This document shows positions 3-31,080 of a DNA stretch of 41,184 bases, piece by piece; the stretch's first letter is position 1; each line of letters opens with the position of its first letter. The notes beneath the pieces are model-generated. The model saw only the letters and a list, made by a program, of their open reading frames with translations, had not been told where the DNA came from and made no database searches. The DNA is from a phage, in the sequence record NC_093713.1; one strand, written 5' to 3'. The position numbers and the translations under genes were made by a program.

Positions 3-746
3 CTTGCGGGAGTTCCGGAAGATGCGCCTCTCTGGACGGGAAGCCCGCCTTGCCAACCGTTTAGCGCGGCGGGAAAGCAACTCGGACAGTTCGACCCGAG
101 ACACCTCGCACCTGTGTTCCTCGACCTTATCAGCGAGTGCCGACCTCCAGTCCTCTTTGGGGAGCAGGTTGCGCCAGCAATTGCAAAATCGTGGATGTGC
201 GATTTACAAACTCACCTGGAAGGAGAAGACTACGCCGTCGGGTTTGCCGTACTCCCAGCTTGTAGCGTCGGCGCACCGCACAAACGCGACAGACTGTTCT
301 TCGGCGCGCACAGACTGGCCCACACCGGCGGTATCACTGATAACAAACGACGTGAACATGCGCAGCACAGACGGCAGGACGAAACCGAACAAACTGGGAT
401 GGGCCGCTGCGATGGCGGCTTGGCCTACACCGACAGCGAACGACTACAGGGGGAGCGGAGAGACAGTGATTCGCAAGGACGGGAAGGACAGGACATTCGA
501 CAGGCTGGACTACTCGACGGAGCAGGGTCTGAAAATAACACAACCTATTCGCATCACGGCTTCTGGTCAGATGCTGACTGGCTCGGATGCCGGGATGGGA
601 AATTCAGGCCAGTTGAACCCGGCGCATTCCCGCTGGCTAATGGGATACCCGCCAGAGTGGGACGATTGCGCGGTTATGGCAATGCCATCGTCCCGCAAGT
701 AGCCGCTGAATTTATAAAGGCATTCATGGGGGCGGTAAATGAGTAA
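3..746 (+). CDS. DNA (cytosine-5)-methyltransferase, 3' portion (N-terminus is at the window end, 41003..41184); conserved motifs are split between two reading frames
   Basis: Frame 3 carries PCQPFSAAG (motif IV), PHKRDRLFFGAH (motif VIII) and C-terminal GNAIVPQVAAEFIKA (motif X). Frame 1 carries WPTP repeats and LNPAHSRWLMGYPPEWD (motif IX-like). Both frames are open over ~700 bp. Confidence 0.6.
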   Translation, partial: LAGVPEDAPLWTGSPPCQPFSAAGKQLGQFDPRHLAPVFLDLISECRPPVLFGEQVAPAIAKSWMCDLQTHLEGEDYAVGFAVLPACSVGAPHKRDRLFFGAHRLAHTGGITDNKRREHAQHRRQDETEQTGMGRCDGGLAYTDSERLQGERRDSDSQGREGQDIRQAGLLDGAGSENNTTYSHHGFWSDADWLGCRDGKFRPVEPGAFPLANGIPARVGRLRGYGNAIVPQVAAEFIKAFMGAVNE

Positions 747-2163
747 GTTTCAAAGGCGCGAATACCAGAAGCTCATGACTTCGTTCATGCTGCGGCACCA
801 TCGCTGCAATATCTGGGCGAGCATGGGCAGCGGTAAGTCGGGGTCAACGTTGTGGGTTCTCAATCGACTGTTCCGTAATGGGCAACTTAATGACGACGAC
901 CGAGTGTTAATTCTGGCTCCTTTACGTGTTGCGTCAGGTACGTGGCCCGCGGAACAGGCATGTTGGAACTTCCCCTGTCTGAGTGTCGTAGACGCAACCG
1001 GTTCAGAGAAGCGCCGTATCGCGGCGCTGGAGTCAGATGCTAACGTGGTGTGCACAAACTACGAAGTTATCGAGTGGCTGATTGACTACTACGGCAAAGA
1101 CGACTGGCCTTTTACGGTTATCGTTGCTGATGAGAGCACGAAGCTGAAATCTTTCCGTAGCCGTTCTGGAGGAAGCAAACGGGCTAAGGCGCTAAGCAAA
1201 GTGGCGTTCGGAAAGGTTAAGCGTTTCATTAACCTGACAGGCACACCGTCGCCGAACGGCCTCAAGGACTTGTGGGGGCAGAACTGGTTTATCGACGCTG
1301 GCGAGCGCCTTGGTTCTTCGTACACGGCATTCACAGACCGCTGGTTTAACTCGGTACAGAAAGGGAAATCCGCGATGGCGCGGGAGTATCACGCACGACC
1401 GGGTGCGGATAATGAGATTCATCAGAAGATGAAAGACATTAGTCTCACGATTGACGCCGCCGAGTGGTTTGGATGTGAAGCGCCGATTATTGTACCAGTG
1501 GAAATTGACCTGCCGAAGAAAGCGCGTCAGGCATATACCGATATGGAGGAGAAGTTATTTGCGGAACTGGAGAGCGGAGAAGTGGAAGCGGCTAACGCGG
1601 CGGCGAAGACGTCGAAGTGTTTGCAGATTGCTTCTGGTGCTGTGTATGTATCAGGGCCAGACGGAGAAGCAACCAAAGACTGGGAGAAAGTGCACGACAC
1701 GAAACTGGATGCGCTGGAGTCAATTGTTGAGGAGTTACAGGGTGCTCCGCTACTGGTAGCCTATCAGTTCAAGCACGAACTGGAGCGTATCCTGAAACGT
1801 TTCCCGCAGGCGCAGGCATTCGCGAAAGGTGCTAAGGGTAATAAGCAGATGGAAGCATGGAACCGCGGCGAAATCGAAATCTTATGCGTGCATCCTGCGT
1901 CGGCCGGACATGGTTTGAATTTACAGGACGGCGGACATCATCTGGCATTCATCTCGCAAGGCTGGAACCTTGAGCACTATTTGCAGGTTGTCGAGCGCAT
2001 AGGCCCAGTTCGCCAGAAGCAGGCAGGCCACGAACGCCCGGTGTTCCTGTATCACATCGTTGCTAAAGACACACTGGACGAGGTTGTTGCCGCGCGTACC
2101 GACGAGAAGAAATCGGTACAGGAAGAGTTGCTTAACTACATGAAGAGACGAGGTAAGAAATGA
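739..2163 (+). CDS. SNF2/DEAD-like superfamily 2 helicase
   Basis: 474 aa; Walker A GSGKSGS, DExx-like VIVADEST, motif III LTGTPSPN; ATG with upstream G-rich SD; overlaps methyltransferase stop. Confidence 0.8.
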   Translation: MSKFQRREYQKLMTSFMLRHHRCNIWASMGSGKSGSTLWVLNRLFRNGQLNDDDRVLILAPLRVASGTWPAEQACWNFPCLSVVDATGSEKRRIAALESDANVVCTNYEVIEWLIDYYGKDDWPFTVIVADESTKLKSFRSRSGGSKRAKALSKVAFGKVKRFINLTGTPSPNGLKDLWGQNWFIDAGERLGSSYTAFTDRWFNSVQKGKSAMAREYHARPGADNEIHQKMKDISLTIDAAEWFGCEAPIIVPVEIDLPKKARQAYTDMEEKLFAELESGEVEAANAAAKTSKCLQIASGAVYVSGPDGEATKDWEKVHDTKLDALESIVEELQGAPLLVAYQFKHELERILKRFPQAQAFAKGAKGNKQMEAWNRGEIEILCVHPASAGHGLNLQDGGHHLAFISQGWNLEHYLQVVERIGPVRQKQAGHERPVFLYHIVAKDTLDEVVAARTDEKKSVQEELLNYMKRRGKK

Positions 2164-24219: not shown

Positions 24220-25470
24220 TTAAAGTGCGAAAGTCACGGGGATGTTGATTACTGGTTTAACAACCGGCATCTCGTAAACTACAGGATAGCCGAGGGCATC
24301 CGCCATATGGTCAATGATGCCGTCTTTAGCTGGCTCTCCGTTATCGTCGTATGCCTGCTGTTCCAGCGTCTTTGCTATCTCAGGGCATAAGTGGTCGTTA
24401 ACCCACAGCTTACCTTTTTCCAGTGCGGTATTCACGGCTAAAACACGGTCTTTAACCGGAGGGTTGGCGGATTTAGCGCGAACATCGAAACCTGCCTGCT
24501 GGAGTAACGCAATATCTGAGATTGACGCCGAGTTGGTCTTGCGGTTCTTGCCGCTGGCGTCCGGGTAAACGACTATGCGGTGGCCCTGCGACTTCCACTT
24601 CTCAGTAATTACGCGCACGGTATCCGGTGTATCGAACAGGCCTTTCAGTTCTGCTACCGCGTGCCAGCCGTCTTTACGTTGCACATACACGGCGCTTGCG
24701 TTCTTCGTAACGTTGAAGTCCTGCCCGATGTACAACGTGTCGCCCGGTTGAATTACCTCTTTGCTGCGGTGCTTACGGCGGTCATATGCGTAATACACGC
24801 TGCCGGAGGTAAGGTTGACGAACTCACCATTCAGATACGCGTTAATCAACTGCGCCGGATAAGTCTCGGTCAGCGAACTAATGTAGTCAGGTGGCAGGAA
24901 TCGCGCGTTCTCGTGTGTAGAAGCCTGCACCATCGAGTAACTCGGCGTCGGGTTCTCTTTGAACTTGGCGTAGACGAACTTGAACCCTTCCGGTGTCGTG
25001 GTGACAGAGATGTGGTTAATTACGCCAGGAATAACAAGACGCATACGGGCCACAATTTTGTTCCACGCCAGTTCAGCTTTCTCGCGGCTCAATACATCCA
25101 GCTCATCCACGACTGCCGCAGCGATTTTGAAGCCGACGATAGAGCCTGGGTTATCCATCGAACGGCAGATAACAGTTCCGAGAACCGTCTTACCGCGAGT
25201 AACCACGACTTCTTTGTCGCCAGATTTAACCAGCACATCGAGGCCGAGCAGGTTAGCGGCTTCCTCAAATGTCGGGTAGAAGATGTCACGGATAGCCGGG
25301 TATGTCGGGCCGAAGTAACCCAGGCGCGTACCTGGATGCTTGAGCATAAACGTAAGCAGGTCAAGGCAGCCAACAAATGTCTTTCCGCTGCCGAAGCCGC
25401 CGACATATGCCTTATATTTGTTATCACAATTCAGGAACAGCGCCTGCGGTGCGGATAGCTGAATACTCAT
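24220..25470 (-). CDS. terL: terminase large subunit
   Basis: 416 aa; Walker A GGFGSGKT and Walker B AAVVDELD; overlaps TerS stop. Confidence 0.85.
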   Translation of the reverse strand: MSIQLSAPQALFLNCDNKYKAYVGGFGSGKTFVGCLDLLTFMLKHPGTRLGYFGPTYPAIRDIFYPTFEEAANLLGLDVLVKSGDKEVVVTRGKTVLGTVICRSMDNPGSIVGFKIAAAVVDELDVLSREKAELAWNKIVARMRLVIPGVINHISVTTTPEGFKFVYAKFKENPTPSYSMVQASTHENARFLPPDYISSLTETYPAQLINAYLNGEFVNLTSGSVYYAYDRRKHRSKEVIQPGDTLYIGQDFNVTKNASAVYVQRKDGWHAVAELKGLFDTPDTVRVITEKWKSQGHRIVVYPDASGKNRKTNSASISDIALLQQAGFDVRAKSANPPVKDRVLAVNTALEKGKLWVNDHLCPEIAKTLEQQAYDDNGEPAKDGIIDHMADALGYPVVYEMPVVKPVINIPVTFAL

Positions 25471-26051
25471 TCCTCTACCTCACCCATATTCGTTGTTACA
25501 ATTTTACCTACAGGCTCTGCAACACTAAAAATAATCTCAGTCGGTGCCGTTTCTTCGGTGGATTCGACTGGTTTCTCTTTACCGAGGCCCAGTTTAGCTG
25601 CGGCGAACGTAGCAGAGATGCCCGCGGCCCCTGTCTCAGTGAAGTACGCCTCTTCCAGTGCCTGTGCTGTCTCGTATGCTTCTGCAAATGCGGGAATCTC
25701 GCGCAGCCACAGCTTAATAATCGGGATAGTGACGCCTATGTGCAGGGCGAAGCGGGCCAGTGACGGAGGTTTATCCTGAATCAGCGGGCGTTCGTCACCC
25801 TTAGACGTAGGCACAAGCTCCCATGACGTGCGGTCGAAGAACTCGATTAACGCGTCGCAATAGTCCGGGTCCCACAACGCTGCGGAATTACGGGATGATT
25901 GATAAAGGCTCTGTTTACCGCGCGGTCGCTTACGGCGGCGGTTTGCGCTAACAGCTTCTTCATGTGCAGCTTGCACCACCTCTGGCGATGGCTGCTTGAG
26001 TTTCAGCTTCATAGAATCCCCTTGCATATGCGTCTGACCATCAGAGCGCAT
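25467..26051 (-). CDS. terS: terminase small subunit (putative)
   Basis: Position upstream of TerL; basic N-terminal region; probable ATG at 26012 (MKLKL...) with SD AGGGGA. Confidence 0.55.
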   Translation of the reverse strand: MRSDGQTHMQGDSMKLKLKQPSPEVVQAAHEEAVSANRRRKRPRGKQSLYQSSRNSAALWDPDYCDALIEFFDRTSWELVPTSKGDERPLIQDKPPSLARFALHIGVTIPIIKLWLREIPAFAEAYETAQALEEAYFTETGAAGISATFAAAKLGLGKEKPVESTEETAPTEIIFSVAEPVGKIVTTNMGEVEE

Positions 26052-26109
26052 CAGACGCGCCCTACGCGTCTAAAGGGATTATATAAGGGGATTGGGCGGG
26101 ATGTACAGA

Positions 26110-26130
26110 AAAGCCCTCCGTAGAGGGCTT
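26110..26130 (-). terminator. rho-independent terminator between the small-gene operon and terS
   Basis: GCCCTC-TACG-GAGGGC followed by TTTTCTGT on the - strand. Confidence 0.6.
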
Positions 26131-26144
26131 GTGTGTTGGTTATT

Positions 26145-26315
26145 TTACAGTTCTGCGGATGTCAGATGGCTGGCCGCGGCTTTAACCGCATCTTTAAGGT
26201 TAGCATACGCGGAAGTAAAAGACGTATGCGCCCCTTTTGAGATAACTGTAACGCCGCCGTAATGGTCGTTAGCTACGGGAATGGCCCAGGTGTTAGGGAT
26301 GATTAGTAGTCTCAT
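26145..26315 (-). CDS. small protein (56 aa), hypothetical
   Basis: Hand-translated MRLLIIPNTW...; ATG overlaps upstream stop (ATGA). Confidence 0.4.
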   Translation of the reverse strand: MRLLIIPNTWAIPVANDHYGGVTVISKGAHTSFTSAYANLKDAVKAAASHLTSAEL

Positions 26316-26470
26316 TTGAAGAAACCATCCTTGACAAGCTGACGGTATAGTTTAGCTGCGTAACGCTCTGCCTGGCCTTTGCGCCGAAATATTTTCCCAT
26401 TAACTGAATACTTATTTAACTCTGGCTCGTACCAAACTTGGTTGTCGATGAACTCCAGAATACTAATCAT
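26312..26470 (-). CDS. small protein (52 aa), hypothetical
   Basis: Hand-translated MISILEFIDNQVWYEPELNK...; ATGA coupling at both ends. Confidence 0.4.
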   Translation of the reverse strand: MISILEFIDNQVWYEPELNKYSVNGKIFRRKGQAERYAAKLYRQLVKDGFFK

Positions 26471-26703
26471 TCCCCACTCCCCTCTTTAGCAATACGTTGC
26501 TCTGTTTTAGTAATACCCCGGCGCGTGAATAACACCGGGCTTGTCTTAACGTGCGTCATCAGACGATTGTTATAAATTACGTGGCGCTCGCAATCGACGT
26601 CTTTGCTGTACTTCGCAATCGTCATTTCGTTGATGCCGGTTTGTCTGCATGTCTCAGCCATCGTGCCAAATTCTTTAATCAGGTTCGGAATGCTGGTAAT
26701 CAT
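26467..26703 (-). CDS. small HTH-like protein (78 aa)
   Basis: ATG at 26703 overlaps upstream stop; MAETCRQTGINEMTIAKY resembles an HTH; the track ORF (to 26727) uses a GTG in the same frame. Confidence 0.45.
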   Translation of the reverse strand: MITSIPNLIKEFGTMAETCRQTGINEMTIAKYSKDVDCERHVIYNNRLMTHVKTSPVLFTRRGITKTEQRIAKEGSGE

Positions 26704-26876
26704 CCTAAAAAATTCCTCGTTGTCCACATCGCATTCGGATATTTATTATCACGGTCCTGTACCACAGCAATCATGTTTCCGCGTTGCACCAGGCAGAAGT
26801 GCCGTTGTTGTTCACCGTTGTAGCGACGCCAGATTGCTTCTTCGATTGCCGCATTAATGTCACTGAACATAATCAT
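26700..26876 (-). CDS. small protein (56-58 aa), hypothetical
   Basis: Hand-translated MIMFSDINAAIEEAIWRRYNGEQQRHFCLVQ...; ATGA coupling to both neighbours; overlaps the GTG-extended track ORF in another frame. Confidence 0.4.
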   Translation of the reverse strand: MIMFSDINAAIEEAIWRRYNGEQQRHFCLVQRGNMIAVVQDRDNKYPNAMWTTRNFLG

Positions 26877-27055
26877 CCCACTATCTCATCACCAAGCCAC
26901 GCCGTTTCTCGTATATCGTCGACCACACAGGCGGCGTGCTCACGGCTAATTGCAAAAATGTAGAAACTAAACTTCTTCCCGTCGGCGTCGATATGGTTAA
27001 CCGAGTAGGGTTTCCCCAGGACACCATCAATTACTACTGGTTTAGTCGACTCCAT
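26873..27055 (-). CDS. small protein (60 aa), hypothetical
   Basis: ORF track; stop overlaps the next start. Confidence 0.4.
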   Translation of the reverse strand: MESTKPVVIDGVLGKPYSVNHIDADGKKFSFYIFAISREHAACVVDDIRETAWLGDEIVG

Positions 27056-27299
27056 ACGCTTTACCGCATTTTAAGCATGTGACTCGATGCACCCCATCAA
27101 CTAAATGCAGGCGGTAATCATGCTCGCAGGCGTTCATCTTTTCCTCTTCTCCTCTCAACAACATGAGAAGAACCTTAAATGCGGCTAACTGGTACTCACC
27201 GTTAATCGACAGTTGCCCGCCTAGCGTCTGTTTCTCCGACTCAAGCACCAGAATACGGCGCTCGAGCGATGCGATTGTGATTTTAGGCATTGGTATCAC
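27042..27299 (-). CDS. small protein (85 aa) with C/H cluster, possible zinc-binding
   Basis: CEHDYRLHLVDGVHRVTCLKCGKAYG. Confidence 0.4.
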   Translation of the reverse strand: MIPMPKITIASLERRILVLESEKQTLGGQLSINGEYQLAAFKVLLMLLRGEEEKMNACEHDYRLHLVDGVHRVTCLKCGKAYGVD

Positions 27300-27471
27300 C
27301 TTTGTTCAGGTTGAAGCGGTTAATAAGTTCGCGGCGTTGTTCCATGAGGATGTCTACTTTATTAGCGTAGTAAGTAATCATCTGATCGAGACAGGCAATC
27401 TGGCTCTCCCCACCTGCGGCGGGTTTCAGGGCTGCTGCGACACATGCTTTTTCGTATTCGTTGTTAGTCAT
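27283..27471 (-). CDS. small protein (62 aa), hypothetical
   Basis: ORF track; overlaps neighbours. Confidence 0.4.
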   Translation of the reverse strand: MTNNEYEKACVAAALKPAAGGESQIACLDQMITYYANKVDILMEQRRELINRFNLNKGDTNA

Positions 27472-27625
27472 TTTTACGCGCTCCCCACATGCGATTGAGA
27501 TACTTGTTCTTGTCCGGCCCAGGGAAACTGTTACGTTTCATCAGTTCCTCGCGTGTCGGGAACGGGGCGTGACTGACTTTACGGCCTACTCGTAACGGTT
27601 GGCTTACTGGGCCTTGTTCGCTCAT
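27464..27625 (-). CDS. small protein (53 aa), hypothetical
   Basis: Hand-translated MSEQGPVSQPLRVGRKV...; SD AGGAGA; ATGA coupling. Confidence 0.4.
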   Translation of the reverse strand: MSEQGPVSQPLRVGRKVSHAPFPTREELMKRNSFPGPDKNKYLNRMWGARKND

Positions 27626-27771
27626 TTCTTCTCTCCTGCATAAGCTGCTTTAAGTGTCTGCATCGCAGCGAACCAGAACGCGTCCGCTGGAATGCTGTTG
27701 CTCAGGTTACTAACGGCGATGCGTGCCATCAGTTGTGCGTCTTTGAATGCTTCGATGTCTGTGATTTTCAT
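27622..27771 (-). CDS. small protein (49 aa), first gene of the operon
   Basis: Hand-translated MKITDIEAFKDAQLMARIAV...; SD GGAG. Confidence 0.4.
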   Translation of the reverse strand: MKITDIEAFKDAQLMARIAVSNLSNSIPADAFWFAAMQTLKAAYAGEKK

Positions 27772-27804
27772 TTTCTCTACTCCGTTCTCGTTGTCGATGG
27801 AGTA

Positions 27805-27833
27805 AATATAATAGGGTCTAAGGTAATAGTCAA
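27805..27833 (-). promoter_or_regulatory. sigma70-like promoter (TTGACT-N17-TATATT) for the small-gene operon
   Basis: Hexamers with 17 nt spacing just downstream of two terminators. Confidence 0.5.
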
Positions 27834-27855
27834 CTAGTCATTACAGAAAACAGAT

Positions 27856-27887
27856 AAAAAAAATCCCGGCTGGGGCAGGGCCGGGAT
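27856..27887 (-). terminator. rho-independent terminator
   Basis: ATCCCGGC...GCCGGGAT stem followed by T8 on the - strand. Confidence 0.7.
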
Positions 27888-27926
27888 AAAACTGGAGAGC
27901 AGAGGGATGGAACAGGAGGTGATTTA
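27860..27926 (-). ncRNA. candidate small RNA, ~60-70 nt, containing an anti-Shine-Dalgarno-like AUCACCUCCU
   Basis: TTGACA-N17-GATACT promoter (27955..27927) followed ~60 nt later by a T8 terminator; no ORF on either strand. Confidence 0.25.
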
Positions 27927-27960
27927 AGTATCGTCGGATTAGTCTCAGGTGTCAATTGGT

Positions 27961-27988
27961 AAAATAAAACCCGGATTCGCGGTCCGGG
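27961..27988 (-). terminator. rho-independent terminator after the lysis genes
   Basis: CCCGGA-CCGCGAA-TCCGGG followed by TTTTATTTT on the - strand. Confidence 0.65.
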
Positions 27989-28117
27989 TTTCGGTCATAA
28001 GCCCTGAACCCTACGCAGTCTCCACCGCTTGGGCTGCTGCTTCGGGTTTACCGGGGCTTAGTATGCAAGCACAAGCAGCGTAGGGATAAGTTTACTAAAC
28101 GCCTTCGTATTCGTCCA

Positions 28118-28603
28118 TCATTTAACAGCCCTCCCAATAGCCTCAGCCTCTTGCCACGGTTTACCGTCGAACAGCGCCAGACGCCCGGCTGTACGGCGAC
28201 GCAGGCCAAGTAGTGGTTTGCCGTTCTGGTTGATGAACAGCGCCAGCTTAGCCCGCAGTGTTGCAGTATCACCAGAACGCAGTGCCTTGCCTGCGCCCGT
28301 AGTAGACGCAATCACGCCAGCACCTGCGTTATAGACCAGGTCGCACACTGCATCAAACTGCGCCTGTGTCAGGGAGTGGTGTGCTGCTGCGTCAACCGCA
28401 GCTACAGCCTTAGCCATATCACGATTCAGTAACAGGAGGCCTTGCCCTGGCGTGATGGTCTTACCTGGTGTTACGTCTGGCCCGTAGTGACCATAACCAA
28501 TAGTCAGGTACTTCTCGTTCGGCGTAGCGCGATACGCAGTTCCGCGGAATCCCTCGAACGCGGCACAGAAATGCAATCCATTATCTGAAATATTTCGAGA
28601 CAT
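28118..28603 (-). CDS. endolysin, phage lysozyme (glycoside hydrolase family 24-like)
   Basis: 161 aa; N-terminal FEGFRGTAYRATPNEKYLTIGYGH consistent with the T4 lysozyme catalytic E/D/T region. Confidence 0.75.
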   Translation of the reverse strand: MSRNISDNGLHFCAAFEGFRGTAYRATPNEKYLTIGYGHYGPDVTPGKTITPGQGLLLLNRDMAKAVAAVDAAAHHSLTQAQFDAVCDLVYNAGAGVIASTTGAGKALRSGDTATLRAKLALFINQNGKPLLGLRRRTAGRLALFDGKPWQEAEAIGRAVK

Positions 28604-28853: not shown

Positions 28854-29154
28854 GCGGTCCTCCTGGGCGGGCAATATCGCCGCCCGATACGATGCCAGAA
28901 AGGCGGGAATAGATAGGCATCCAGAGAATGGCAATGATGAATCCGAGGCCAGCTATCTCGCGCTCACCGGTAATACCAAACCATTGAGCCGCAAGAGGTG
29001 CGCCAAATACGGCGCAAGTGAAGCCAGTTGCAATAAAGCAGAAGCCGTCAATAGGGCCAGAAATAACGGACTTATGTTGCCTTAGTCCGATTACCCCACC
29101 AGCTAGTGCGGCGGCGAGAAGCCACCCCGTCACTGTTTCAGTAAATTTATCCAA
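28846..29154 (-). CDS. holin (putative), TTG start
   Basis: 102 aa with hydrophobic segments, directly upstream of the endolysin; only in-frame start is TTG with SD GGAGGA 6 nt upstream. Confidence 0.55.
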   Translation of the reverse strand: MDKFTETVTGWLLAAALAGGVIGLRQHKSVISGPIDGFCFIATGFTCAVFGAPLAAQWFGITGEREIAGLGFIIAILWMPIYSRLSGIVSGGDIARPGGPHD

Positions 29155-29160
29155 GATGAA

Positions 29161-29198
29161 TCCTCCAGGTGCGTATTAAGTATGCAGTAACTGGAGGA
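29161..29198 (-). promoter_or_regulatory. hairpin sequestering the holin Shine-Dalgarno sequence
   Basis: 8 bp stem TCCTCCAG / CTGGAGGA with a 22 nt loop; the 3' arm is the SD of the TTG-initiated holin. Confidence 0.45.
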
Positions 29199-29229
29199 TA
29201 CCACGGGTAGGAATTATCCTAATAGTTGT

Positions 29230-29523
29230 TTATTTATGTCTCCAGATGTATTGGCGTCTCTGCGGTTTCGTCGGAATATCATCGTATCCCAACGATTTCC
29301 AGTAATTAAATAGCCGATTAGCGATTGCTGCGCGTTCCTGTGTTTTAAACTCACCGAGATTCACAGCCTTCCCGTTCTGGAATCCACAGGCGCGGACCGC
29401 TTTGCGTCTGGCCTGAATCTCGGGGTACAGTGCATTACGGCGGCGCTTGTGTATACGCGTATTCGCTCTCGGCGACAGCGGCGCAAGGCCGCTTCGTTTC
29501 AGGATGTCAGTTGCTAACGACAT
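29230..29523 (-). CDS. basic protein (97 aa), hypothetical
   Basis: ORF track; TAATG overlap with the upstream gene. Confidence 0.4.
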   Translation of the reverse strand: MSLATDILKRSGLAPLSPRANTRIHKRRRNALYPEIQARRKAVRACGFQNGKAVNLGEFKTQERAAIANRLFNYWKSLGYDDIPTKPQRRQYIWRHK

Positions 29524-29744
29524 TATTTCTCCTGTTTACCAAGTCGCTTAGGTGAGCAGATAGCGCGTACCTCCGAATCGTTGGGCTTGTCGCCCTGAAA
29601 CAGGAAGTGCGCGTTCTCTGCGGCGCGTGCCGCTGACTGGCACGCCTCCATCGAGTAAAACGTTTCTGATGCCGCCAGATGCATCTGACCCGTGGACAGC
29701 ACCCAGATAAATAAGATGCTGGTCATCAGAAGTATTCCCCACAC
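29523..29744 (-). CDS. small protein with N-terminal hydrophobic segment (secreted or membrane)
   Basis: ORF track; MTSILFIWVLSTG hydrophobic N-terminus, two Cys. Confidence 0.35.
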   Translation of the reverse strand: MWGILLMTSILFIWVLSTGQMHLAASETFYSMEACQSAARAAENAHFLFQGDKPNDSEVRAICSPKRLGKQEK

Positions 29745-30274
29745 GTTTTACATACTTTCGTACCGAACGGCGCGGAGCCATCTGTTATTACATAATAGAA
29801 ACTGTGTTTGCACTCCTGTGTACAGGCTGTTGCCCCATACTCAAGTCCGTCCCACTCACGCTTGCCGCATTCGCAGCAAAACAGGCTACCGGGCACGTTG
29901 TCCTTGTTGCCTTCGGCAATAAACAATCCTGGAGCGATAATCCAATTGTGGTCACATTCCTGCGTATCTTCTTTTCGGCAACCAGATTGCTCCGAACCGT
30001 ACGCACCTTTGCGGATAAGTTTGTATGCCTCCACGTCACCAGTAGCCTCGGCCAATGCCAGACGCAACTCCTTAACTTGCCCTGTCAGGTGCGATATGTG
30101 CTCAGATTTCTTAATGTTGTCTTCCCGCAACTCCTTAATCTGCACCTCATGCGCCAGGTCTTCGCTCACCCCGTTATAGACGCCGTTGTAGTCCCCGTCG
30201 CAGATGAACGGGTAGAGCATATCTTCGTACTCGTCCTGCAACTCACCTAAAGTTACTTCGCTATAATCTTTCAT
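29726..30274 (-). CDS. Cys-rich protein (182 aa), possible zinc-binding
   Basis: Several CxxC / C-x-C pairs in the C-terminal half; directly downstream of the conserved-element promoter. Confidence 0.45.
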   Translation of the reverse strand: MKDYSEVTLGELQDEYEDMLYPFICDGDYNGVYNGVSEDLAHEVQIKELREDNIKKSEHISHLTGQVKELRLALAEATGDVEAYKLIRKGAYGSEQSGCRKEDTQECDHNWIIAPGLFIAEGNKDNVPGSLFCCECGKREWDGLEYGATACTQECKHSFYYVITDGSAPFGTKVCKTCGEYF

Positions 30275-30305
30275 ATTCTGTCTCCCCTCTCGTTTGTGTA
30301 AATGA

Positions 30306-30334
30306 ATAGTAGCCTATTCTATCTTAGTGTGCAA
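30306..30334 (-). promoter_or_regulatory. sigma70-like promoter (TTGCAC-N17-TACTAT) with conserved palindromic element
   Basis: Element TGAATAGTAGCCTATTCTAT at 30303..30322. Confidence 0.5.
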
Positions 30335-30341
30335 GTAAATT

Positions 30342-30515
30342 TTATTGGTGTGTTATAGAGTCGATGAACGCCAGTAACTCCCTTTCCGCTTCTGCTTCTC
30401 TTTCTTCAAGCGACCAGGTAGCGGATTCATCTGTTGCCGTTGCTAAATCGGTTTTTACGTCAATCATCGTGTCGATTAACGTTATTAGTCGTTCAGCCTG
30501 TTCTTTAGTAATCAT
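30342..30515 (-). CDS. small acidic protein (57 aa), hypothetical
   Basis: Hand-translated MITKEQAERLITLIDTMIDVK...; SD AGGAGA; preferred over the + strand track ORF 30364..30576. Confidence 0.4.
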   Translation of the reverse strand: MITKEQAERLITLIDTMIDVKTDLATATDESATWSLEEREAEAERELLAFIDSITHQ

Positions 30516-30649
30516 TGTTGCATCTCCTGCAATAGTCGCTTCGATTGTTGCGTTTGATGAAAGTGTCGCCTTTTGACGACACTAAGTTAAAGTTGTACGC
30601 TGCTACACAGCAGCGTAAGTCACTCAATAAAATCCCAAACTATTGAACA

Positions 30650-30844
30650 TCACACTTCTGGCGGCTCGGGTAACGGCATCCAGTGTGTTGGTTCACATAC
30701 CCCCTCAACACCATTCATGTAAAAGAATTGAAATAGCCCTTTACCTTTGTGAAACCCCACCATCTGCTCTTTTGTATCTGAACAATAAACCAAAACATCT
30801 TCTTCGTTTGGCATCCGCTCACTACACTTAATCCACTCACCCAT
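30650..30844 (-). CDS. small protein (64 aa), hypothetical
   Basis: ORF track; MGEWIKCSERMPNEEDVLVYC... Confidence 0.45.
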   Translation of the reverse strand: MGEWIKCSERMPNEEDVLVYCSDTKEQMVGFHKGKGLFQFFYMNGVEGVCEPTHWMPLPEPPEV

Positions 30845-30847
30845 AAA

Positions 30848-30991
30848 TCACCCCTTATTCATCACAGATTGCACGCCAGCTTTCCACGCCCGCCACGCAA
30901 GACGGGTCTTAACGTTCAGGTACTCTTTCTTTGAACCCTTGTTAACCGGCAGACCCTCGACCACAGCCCACCGTTCAAATGCTTCTCTCAT
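30848..30991 (-). CDS. small protein (47 aa), hypothetical
   Basis: Hand-translated MREAFERWAVVEGLPVNKGSKKEYLNVKTRLAWRAWKAGVQSVMNKG; SD GAGGT; ATGA overlap with upstream gene. Confidence 0.4.
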   Translation of the reverse strand: MREAFERWAVVEGLPVNKGSKKEYLNVKTRLAWRAWKAGVQSVMNKG

Positions 30992-31080
30992 ACCAGAACC
31001 TCACATTCATCCTCGTCTTTGGTAACTATTACGTGTTGCCGGCTGCGCTTTGTTTTCACCAACTGACCATTCTTAAACAT
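30988..31080 (-). CDS. small protein (30 aa), hypothetical
   Basis: Hand-translated MFKNGQLVKTKRSRQHVIVTKDEDECEVLV; SD GGAGTGAGGG; first ORF after the promoter. Confidence 0.3.
   Translation of the reverse strand: MFKNGQLVKTKRSRQHVIVTKDEDECEVLV

Follow-up and report, generated by a model that had tools for sequence, protein, structure and literature searches.

Do nine tiny, overlapping reading frames squeezed between the lysis genes and terS of a phage represent genuine genes, and if so, what kind of unit do they form? The question was raised by a sequence-only reading of the window, the whole stretch of 41,184 nucleotides analysed here (sequence record NC_093713.1), whose source is Escherichia phage P AB-2017 (Guernseyvirinae, Kagunavirus, K1G-like). 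Here, we report that the nine genes are real and form an ordinary accessory-gene cassette located between the lysis and packaging genes of Jersey/K1G-type phages. The cassette is already known in the sense that its genes stand in public records as annotated hypothetical proteins: the record of the phage itself annotates eight of the nine, and relatives have annotated genes at all nine positions. The flanks first proposed, lysis cassette and terS, were confirmed from the annotation of relatives as endolysin and terS. All nine ORFs were recovered on the minus strand at the positions originally called, tiling 27771..26145 with sizes of 49–82 aa and consecutive overlaps, from g1 to g9, of 4, 8, 8, 14, 4, 4, 4 and 4 nt:

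27771..27622, minus strand: g1, 49 aa, phrog_2180, in both genera (Jerseyvirus and Kagunavirus), annotated P_38
27625..27464, minus strand: g2, 53 aa, DUF2737 family, relative of P22 Orf56, in both genera, annotated P_37
27471..27283, minus strand: g3, 62 aa, NinZ-like, phrog_1402, in both genera, annotated P_36
27290..27042, minus strand: g4, 82 aa from ATG (85 from GTG 27299), phrog_9023, annotated P_35
27055..26873, minus strand: g5, 60 aa, phrog_10509, predicted beta-hairpin plus helix
26876..26700, minus strand: g6, 58 aa, phrog_5407, annotated P_34
26703..26467, minus strand: g7, 78 aa from ATG (86 from GTG 26727), NinH-like helix-turn-helix (HTH) protein, in both genera
26470..26312, minus strand: g8, 52 aa, phrog_22059
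26315..26145, minus strand: g9, 56 aa, in-frame fusion of two neighbouring genes

Together, ORFs 45 aa or longer span 100% of the coding strand of the array, a coverage equalled by none of 2000 dinucleotide shuffles (maximum 0.95). Five ORFs in the array are shorter than 60 aa, which fits the earlier statement that five had been absent from the supplied ORF track. The products all match PHROG families (9/9), every one of them an 'unknown function' family. The impression that nothing in the array was recognisable was thus true by eye and false by search, which placed g2 in DUF2737 and found g3 to be NinZ-like and g7 NinH-like.

The array had also been proposed to be driven by one sigma70-like promoter and closed by one terminator, and both signals hold up well:

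27805..27833, minus strand: P2, operon promoter, -35 TTGACT at 27833..27828, 17-nt spacer, -10 TATATT at 27810..27805
27772..27804, minus strand: 5' leader with ribosome-binding site (ACUCCAUCGACAACGAGAACGGAGUAGAGAAA, then AUG), conserved in relatives
26105..26130, minus strand: T3, terminator, 8-bp G+C-rich stem AAGCCCUC/GAGGGCUU, loop UACG, then UUCUGU

P2, a promoter-like site predicted from sequence, is near-consensus (10/12 in a sigma-70 consensus scan); its hexamers are invariant across related loci of both genera while the spacer is variable, and the annotations of phages PVP-SE2 and Jersey place a promoter here. The leader, with a Shine-Dalgarno pairing of −6.1 kcal/mol, is nearly identical in most related loci whatever the family of the first gene (g1, f13, f24, f28 or others). 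The T3 hairpin (26130..26111) with its U-tract reaches −16.1 kcal/mol (z = −5.5), none of 200 shuffles being as stable. Like the promoter hexamers of this predicted sigma-70 operon, the hairpin is conserved in relatives; an identical T3 sequence follows the array of locus L031, the PVP-SE2 record has a terminator annotated at the T3 position, and terminators are annotated in Jersey too.

The called frames are supported by the pattern of substitution. In g1–g7, differences among relatives fall preferentially on third codon positions when read in the called frames (p from 1e-3 to 3e-19), and dN/dS against the window allele is 0.02–0.33. Conservation following a different frame, named beforehand as an observation that would count against the gene calls, was thus not what g1–g7 displayed; the third-position signal of g9 is weak (p = 0.013) and g8 has too few substitutions among relatives for a frame test. 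Start codons were assessed by Shine-Dalgarno pairing, which favours the ATG over the GTG alternative both in g7 (−5.9 versus +0.1 kcal/mol) and in g4 (−4.3 versus +0.3 kcal/mol). The NinH-like genes of relatives keep the 78-aa form and the ATGA overlap, even where the upstream gene belongs to a different family. Judged by these starts and overlaps, the 86-aa GTG-initiated ORF of the supplied track is correctly resolved as a 58-aa gene coupled to a 78-aa gene.

Every one of the 38 related loci compared had a unit of promoter, array and terminator with the same overlaps. Four genes, g1, g2, g3 and g7, are common to Jerseyvirus and Kagunavirus and are under purifying selection in both, and the remaining positions swap among more than 40 small families. 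Annotated counterparts are found in Salmonella phages (SETP3 gp56-63, Jersey gp65-69, PVP-SE2 ORF01-06) and in Escherichia phages (fTaEco03 TE3_065-074, EC3-1 gp53-61), with 8–10 small CDS in the cassettes of SETP3 and fTaEco03. The P AB-2017 cassette shares with those of other Guernseyvirinae the position between endolysin and terS, the promoter, leader and terminators, the overlap pattern and the four shared genes, whereas the variable gene set changes phage by phage: P AB-2017 is without the extra first gene of fTaEco03, its set includes the uncommon g8, and its last gene is a fusion.

The reading we favour, and regard as reasonably probable, is that of an autonomous Guernseyvirinae accessory cassette in which P2–T3 transcription and coupled translation provide a constant frame for exchangeable small intracellular modulators. 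Host RNA polymerase would most likely start at P2 and produce one mRNA of about 1.7 kb that stops at T3, as the conserved signals suggest, and terminators on both sides would insulate the cassette. Ribosomes would load at the conserved leader and probably move from gene to gene by means of the 4–14-nt overlaps; g5 and g6, with their weak Shine-Dalgarno sequences, would depend on such coupling more than the others. Promoter, leader and terminator would make up the constant frame, with g1, g2, g3 and g7 kept in both genera, and the other positions would be exchanged by recombination at gene borders and by deletions able to fuse neighbours, as in g9. Since three of the products are related to non-structural accessory genes of the P22/lambda early regions, we infer small DNA- or protein-binding modulators acting inside the infected cell rather than parts of the virion.

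These relationships differ in strength. The g2 product scores 38.8 bits against Pfam PF10930 (DUF2737), above the gathering cut-off of 25 (E = 8.7e-10), and is 63% identical to P22 orf56 over 27 aa by tblastn (E = 5e-9), with a dN/dS of 0.27. The DUF2737 match names the family of g2 without explaining the gene, because function is known for no member; P22 orf56 itself sits in the ea region and adjoins the anti-RecBCD gene abc2. The similarity of g3 to P22 ninZ is weak (37% identity over 43 aa, E = 3.7e-5, in a tblastn search of the P22 genome alone), and g3 is also the most divergent among the four shared genes, with 42–82% identity to relatives. The first gene, g1, has a dN/dS of 0.24 (third-position p = 4e-9). 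The P22 counterparts of array genes are located in regions annotated early left and early right.

The HTH-like segment that had been seen in one product belongs to g7, which is labelled 'NinH protein' in the phage's own record and has a dN/dS of 0.076. The BLASTP alignment of g7 with lambda NinH takes in the HTH and the stretch after it (33% identity over 51 aa, E = 1e-9); the score of g7 against Pfam PF06322 (Phage NinH), 23.4 bits (E = 5.5e-5), falls short of the gathering cut-off of 29.8. Lambda NinH is a Fis-like nucleoid-associated protein, a dimer that binds and bends DNA, in which the DNA-contact residues N18, R30, T32, R34 and K35 have been shown to matter, R30A alone lowers DNA affinity by more than three orders of magnitude, and H45 and H55 are required for dimer formation (PMC7166090). 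In an alignment of the lambda, P22, SETP3 and Jersey proteins with g7, residues T32, K35, H45 and H55 are retained (the histidines as H41 and H51 of g7), whereas g7 has T for N18, E for R30, A for R34 and V for R56, so that the full lambda DNA-contact set is not present; the tail of g7 is 20 residues longer. The Glu at the R30 position is also found in the SETP3 and Jersey proteins. Because R30 has become Glu and R34 Ala, and R30A alone is so costly to lambda NinH, Fis-like DNA binding by g7 is doubtful. The g7 product probably forms an HTH dimer that contacts DNA differently from lambda NinH.

The presence of NinH and NinZ homologues invites comparison with the lambdoid nin region (lambda ninB-ninI; P22 ninA-ninZ), which the array resembles in its small overlapping non-structural genes, its mosaic content and its mostly unknown functions. 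NinB, NinG or other nin homologues besides these two were not found in the array with Pfam profiles or by tblastn against P22. The location also differs, the nin region being flanked by replication genes and by the Q/gene 23 antiterminator, the array by lysis and packaging genes. The nin region is transcribed within the early-right operon, whereas the array has its own promoter and terminators.

The centre of the array, g4 to g6, was less informative. Remote homology and structure searches, suggested at the outset as a check, named families for g2, g3 and g7 and gave no informative match for these three; large-database homologue searches with g4, g5 and g6 returned only close relatives, with no named protein and none outside the phage group. 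The Cys/His cluster noted earlier is that of g4, a C-terminal CxH...CxxC arrangement (C55, H57, C72, C75) presumed to be a zinc ribbon. In an alignment of 21 relatives the N-terminal half of g4 (about 50 aa), which by eye is probably helical, is nearly invariant and the C-terminal part variable, and the halves also match separately (phrog_10200 and phrog_4188, respectively); g4 probably combines a helical N-terminal half with an end that binds zinc. The large-database search gave 280 homologues of g4, and its profile met only chance zinc-finger matches among PDB sequences (E of at least 0.35). Kinship of g4 with a 182-aa protein at 30274..29726, which carries two CxH...CxxCG motifs, was considered and is not significant (E = 0.11).

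Among the fetched loci g5 occurs in Kagunavirus only, with a dN/dS of 0.12 and a third-position p of 3e-13. It appears to be unannotated in the phage's own record, because its exact sequence is absent from the protein collection and the locus numbers of the record pass from P_34 to P_35 across it; it is annotated in fTaEco03 (TE3_070) and in EC3-1. The AlphaFold model of g5 (pLDDT 77) had no match in the PDB (best E = 0.9, TM below 0.5), and among viral models it matched unnamed or uncharacterised proteins only. The most constrained gene is g6 (dN/dS 0.024, third-position p = 1e-9), which has only 12 homologue clusters and would be 56 aa long with a start at 26870, the form in most relatives; its AlphaFold model (pLDDT 63) was too low in confidence for a fold search.

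The far end of the array raises the possibility that part of it is evolutionary debris, with g9 and perhaps g8 being recombination remnants that are translated or not without consequence. In g9, 21 codons from the start of a 33-aa gene are followed by the last 35 codons of a 76-aa gene, and the intact forms of both lie 89 nt apart in locus L031; alignment and DNA comparison place the junction in a shared ACGGCGG, as expected of deletion at a 7-nt repeat between two genes. Its PHROG matches are divided accordingly (phrog_32259 and phrog_10134), most tblastn matches from other phages extend over one part alone, aa 1-21 or aa 20-56, and the fusion is rare, its cluster holding 4 sequences. A non-functional fusion may be suspected from this rarity and from the weak codon-position signal already mentioned, and a comparable g5/g6 chimera is present in phage CTH7. 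Similarly, g8 occurs in only 7 of the 38 loci (window counted), almost without variation. However, the g9 fusion is in frame and keeps its ATGA overlap, its C-terminal part derives from a gene conserved in many Jerseyviruses, and the exact g8 sequence was found on 254 contigs, with 35 members in its 90%-identity cluster. We therefore regard debris at this end as a tentative explanation, improbable though deserving of some weight.

Upstream of the operon lies a second, minute transcription unit:

27852..27955, minus strand: mini transcription unit P1-T2, consisting of promoter-like P1, some 40 nt rich in C and U, and terminator T2
27955..27927, minus strand: P1, promoter-like, TTGACA-17-GATACT
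27887..27880 / 27870..27863, minus strand: T2, terminator stem, plus U8

The unit is present in all 38 loci and isolates the operon from the lysis genes. On both arms of the T2 stem Jerseyvirus differs from Kagunavirus with pairing retained, as read by eye. No Rfam family matched the unit at threshold. Pairing of the C/U-rich RNA with the operon leader is unremarkable (rank 123 of 1180; 24% of shuffles pair equally well). The best pairing of this RNA anywhere in the genome, 17 bp long, falls in the helicase gene (around 1561) both here and in fTaEco03; targeting of the helicase gene is nevertheless unsupported, because this pairing is not the best in Jerseyvirus SETP3.

The layout of P1, short RNA and T2 resembles the annotated late promoter and terminator of P22, and the array immediately precedes terS and is read in the same direction. 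The whole could accordingly be the front end of a late operon, in which late transcripts from P1 would run on past T2, through the array and past T3 as far as terS, and some of the encoded proteins, the NinH-like one for example, would aid packaging of DNA. RNA-seq of phage K1B4, the one such study of a relative, is reported to show transcription of a Kagunavirus NinH gene, in the 'middle' class, and in these coarse gene-level classes it peaks and is grouped with lysis and structural genes and not with early ones (PMC12645636). This placement of NinH outside the early genes also counts against the cassette reading proposed above. Lambda-style late control from P1-T2 was rejected, no Q-like antiterminator having turned up when neighbouring proteins were scanned or in the gene list of a well-annotated relative. 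The array is moreover bracketed by two strong terminators, terS has a promoter-like site of its own (TGTACA-18-TATAAT, 26107..26078), and array content varies freely while the packaging genes are conserved. A late-operon role is for these reasons quite improbable.

For the autonomous cassette that we favour, the nature of the cargo remains the point of interest. The sequence-only reading had pointed to host takeover or anti-defence. On that view at least one product would block a host enzyme or a bacterial immune system, with an arms race behind the rapid turnover. Small proteins, a hypervariable slot with its many alternative families and a near-consensus promoter of host type are all consistent with such a role, as are the modest to weak machine-learning anti-CRISPR scores given to the g1 (phrog_2180) and g3 (phrog_1402) families in Jerseyvirus SeF1 (PMC9409062). 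Against it, no characterised inhibitor was matched in Pfam, NCBIfam, PHROGs, PDB sequences or fold searches with the g5 model, and in the family, PDB and fold searches no link between any product and a defence system emerged. Curated family searches (Pfam, NCBIfam and PADLOC, the last of which contains defence proteins, not inhibitors) yielded only DUF2737 and the sub-threshold NinH match. Kagunaviruses with similar cassettes are, according to published BASEL phenotyping, highly sensitive to restriction-modification and variably sensitive to Old, and purifying selection on the four shared genes in both genera is unlike that of typical arms-race genes. An anti-defence island is on this evidence an unlikely, though not negligible, prospect. 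It would be similarly speculative to regard the cassette as a hot-swappable expression slot for small inhibitors of defence or physiology, in which at least one of g5, g6 and g4, all strongly constrained and restricted to Kagunavirus, would be a new kind of inhibitor and the C/U-rich RNA could regulate the slot. The SeF1 scores are the sole precedent for an anti-defence role.

In a phage group sampled as well as this one the cassette is a routine feature; its practical value is that of a tidy test bed: a self-contained unit of 1.7 kb whose frame is constant and of which hundreds of sequenced phages carry natural variants. Deletion or swapping of the cassette would reveal any part played by its small genes in host range or defence evasion of therapeutic K1 phages. 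Some of the phages bearing such variants are in the BASEL collection or have been used in synthetic phage work.

The array of nine small minus-strand genes (27771..26145; g1 to g9 in order of transcription) is a real, ordinary and already catalogued feature of the phage. Escherichia phage P AB-2017 is phage P of the K1 phages collected by Smith and Huggins; its genome was determined by Baig et al. 2017 (PMC5582158). The window is about 92–94% identical, across nearly its full length, to K1G-like siphoviruses (genus Kagunavirus in the Guernseyvirinae subfamily). The closest known system is the same cassette in other Guernseyvirinae, where it is already annotated as hypothetical genes. To this the present analysis makes small additions: an apparently missed gene (g5), a fused gene (g9), altered DNA-contact residues in the NinH-like g7 and a constant promoter-leader frame around shuffled genes. 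For comparison, 51 related loci were fetched via the terS protein, in addition to annotated records, and the endolysin-terS interval was comparable in 38 loci, the window included.

Signals and flanking genes of the array
28603..28118, minus strand: endolysin, flanks the array (annotation of relatives)
27960..28117, minus strand: about 160 nt that separate the endolysin stop from the P1-like site, in only some relatives
27992..27983 / 27975..27966, minus strand: stem of a further terminator within 27960..28117
27852..27955, minus strand: mini transcription unit between endolysin and P2, consisting of a promoter-like site (P1), a C/U-rich stretch and a terminator (T2)
27833..27805, minus strand: P2, promoter-like site of the operon, TTGACT-17-TATATT, score 10/12
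15 nt past the g9 stop codon, minus strand: T3, terminator hairpin with an 8-bp G+C-rich stem, then UUCUGU
within 26052..26107, minus strand: promoter-like TGTACA-18-TATAAT directly past T3
26051..25467, minus strand: terS, small terminase subunit, flanks the array (annotation of relatives)

The nine open reading frames lie where the sequence-only reading had placed them, with successive overlaps of 4, 8, 8, 14, 4, 4, 4 and 4 nt, and the coding strand is covered to 100% by ORFs of 45 aa or more, a figure that none of 2000 dinucleotide shuffles equalled. The five that it had called by hand are shorter than 60 aa and were therefore missed by an ORF track with that limit. Across relatives, substitutions in g1 to g7 fall preferentially on third codon positions when read in the called frames (p from 1e-3 to 3e-19), and where alternative ORFs overlap, the excess sits at the position coinciding with the third one of the called frame. 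The signal is weak in g9 (p = 0.013), and the 12 substitutions of g8 in nine relatives are too few for this test. Relative to the window allele, dN/dS was 0.24, 0.27, 0.24, 0.33, 0.12, 0.024 and 0.076 for g1 to g7, respectively. All nine products match PHROG families (E = 1e-22 to 1e-47), every one of unknown function. The earlier splitting of an 86-aa GTG-initiated ORF into coupled genes of 58 and 78 aa was right, because Shine-Dalgarno pairing is present at the ATG and absent at the GTG, and the NinH-like genes of relatives keep the 78-aa form and the ATGA overlap despite an upstream gene of another family. The ATG start of g4 (82 aa) is likewise preceded by such pairing, and its GTG alternative is not. 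The start of g6 may lie two codons further on (56 aa), where most relatives begin.

An exact look-up returned proteins P_31 to P_38 of the phage, that is, eight of the nine genes. The ninth, g5 (26873..27055, minus strand), appears to be missing from the phage's own annotation, since the protein collection has no copy of its sequence and the P_34/P_35 numbering runs across it. It is annotated in relatives and clearly under purifying selection; one relative names it 'host nuclease inhibitor', a label without cited support.

At the sequence level there is good support for the earlier reading of a single promoter and a single terminator around nine coupled genes. Both P2 hexamers are invariant in related loci of Jerseyvirus and Kagunavirus while the spacer varies, and the 33-nt leader, ribosome-binding site included, is near-constant as far as the start codon, regardless of the first gene's family, as would be expected if the promoter works. 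The T3 hairpin has a fold energy of -16.1 kcal/mol (z = -5.5); a simple terminator scan overlooked it, probably by extending the stem into the U-tract. Promoter and terminator are annotated at corresponding positions in phages PVP-SE2 and Jersey. The weak Shine-Dalgarno sequences of g5 (-3.0 kcal/mol) and g6 (-2.8 kcal/mol) are consistent with a dependence of both on translational coupling. Beyond the TGTACA-18-TATAAT site, GACGCG/CAGACGC repeats form hairpins and could be part of a packaging or control site. For terS itself, ATG 26012 (MKLKLKQ; Shine-Dalgarno -7.6 kcal/mol) is a more likely start than 26051 (-4.2 kcal/mol).

Within this frame the genes are exchanged. A promoter-array-terminator unit of 6–13 genes was found in every related locus compared. 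Four genes (g1, g2, g3 and g7) are common to both genera; g4, g5 and g6 are restricted to Kagunavirus among the fetched loci, and some Jerseyviruses encode a 49-aa product grouped by clustering with g4's N-terminal half. The gene g8 occurs in 7 of the 38 loci, and more than 40 further small families fill the remaining slots in related loci. Exchange points coincide with gene borders, also directly at the first start codon. The nearest studied analogue, the lambdoid nin region, shares NinH, NinZ and small overlapping mosaic genes with the array, but it has the replication genes on one side and antiterminator Q on the other, and is not self-contained.

Neighbouring genes have also been joined. 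The rare g9 combines parts of two genes in frame: 21 codons from the start of a 33-aa gene are followed by the final 35 codons of a 76-aa gene. Both parents are intact and 89 nt apart in a related locus (L031, 3485..3907 compared). The junction falls within a shared ACGGCGG, and the deletion that made the fusion ran between two copies of this motif. It also took out a promoter-like sequence that stands ahead of the 76-aa gene in L031. A comparable g5/g6 chimera is found in phage CTH7. In metagenome assemblies, a 90-aa product (P0225) runs from the end of g5 into g6, which a genuine fusion of the genes or a frameshift introduced by sequencing could explain.

Nothing in the array had been recognisable by eye, and here the searches changed the picture. 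The g2 product is a DUF2737 protein, exceeding the Pfam cut-off, and is 63% identical over 27 aa (E = 5e-9) to P22 orf56, which adjoins abc2 in the ea region. The g3 product matches P22 NinZ (37% over 43 aa, E = 4e-5) and g7 matches lambda NinH (33% over 51 aa, E = 1e-9; Pfam score under the cut-off). The g5 model (beta-hairpin plus helix, pLDDT 77) had no match among solved structures and matched only unnamed or uncharacterised viral proteins, and the g6 model was too uncertain for use. In homologue searches the g4, g5 and g6 families were confined to contigs from this group of phages. In g4, the N-terminal half is nearly invariant and looks helical by eye; the variable end of the protein carries C55, H57, C72 and C75, and some relatives do without this Cys/His-bearing end. 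Two CxH...CxxCG motifs resembling it occur in a 182-aa protein (29726..30274, minus strand; phrog_6094, unknown function), a match that was not significant (E = 0.11). Among the SeF1 proteins that PMC9409062 lists, the family of that protein ranked top by machine-learning anti-CRISPR score.

The alignment identifies g7 as related to NinH by descent. The lambda protein is a Fis-like dimer with DNA-binding and DNA-bending activity, toxic when overexpressed (PMC7166090). T32, K35, H45 and H55 are retained in g7, and N18, R30, R34 and R56 are replaced by T, E, A and V, respectively; Glu at the R30 position is also found in the SETP3 and Jersey proteins. Since R30A alone raises the dissociation constant of lambda NinH by more than three orders of magnitude (PMC7166090), Fis-like DNA binding cannot be assumed for g7.

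PHROG, Pfam and homology searches, and the fold search with the g5 model, connected none of the nine products with a defence system or with takeover of the host. We favour the view that they may be small intracellular modulators expressed by the host polymerase unaided, because three are related to non-structural accessory genes of lambdoid-phage early regions and the promoter is close to the host consensus. The only RNA-seq study of a Kagunavirus, K1B4, with coarse time points and 57 genes called, placed NinH in the 'middle' class with lysozyme and structural genes (PMC12645636), which counts against an early role. An anti-restriction role would be disfavoured by the BASEL study, which reported high sensitivity of Kagunaviruses to restriction-modification systems, with sensitivity to Old varying; two BASEL Kagunaviruses share about three quarters of the array region. 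The sole published anti-defence hint is the modest machine-learning anti-CRISPR scores of the g1 and g3 families in Jerseyvirus SeF1 (PMC9409062).

The P1-T2 mini unit upstream of P2 is present in 38 of 38 loci, the Jerseyvirus terminator stem being changed on both arms with pairing kept. Its promoter-like site (TTGACA-17-GATACT) is followed by about 40 nt of C/U-rich sequence, CACCUCCUGUUCCAUCCCUCUGCUCUCCAG, containing an anti-Shine-Dalgarno-like ACCUCCU, and by a strong terminator with U8. No Rfam family matched it; it could be a small RNA of about 65–70 nt or a read-through control element. The best genome-wide pairing partner of the C/U-rich RNA is a plus-strand site at about 1561..1594, within the helicase gene (739..2163), with 17 consecutive pairs and -40.8 kcal/mol, where the genome mean is -10 (sd 4.5). 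This site is also the top partner in fTaEco03 but not in Jerseyvirus SETP3, so the pairing may be chance. In two related loci (L002 1369..1527 and L018 1512..1670) an insertion of about 100 nt, flanked by the inverted repeats TTAGGCGAGTAG / CTACTCGCCTAA and including a copy of the operon-promoter motif AGTTGACTA, is placed directly past the P1 -10 element, within the presumed small RNA. The endolysin is 349 nt from the first array gene in the window, against 186–190 nt in many relatives, and folding energy upstream in 27960..28117 is not unusual (z = -1.05). Finally, the phage's true early region is probably a second small-gene array (28900..31000, minus strand), located upstream of the holins and beside the divergent-transcription region, with DUF551 and DUF7438 proteins among its products.
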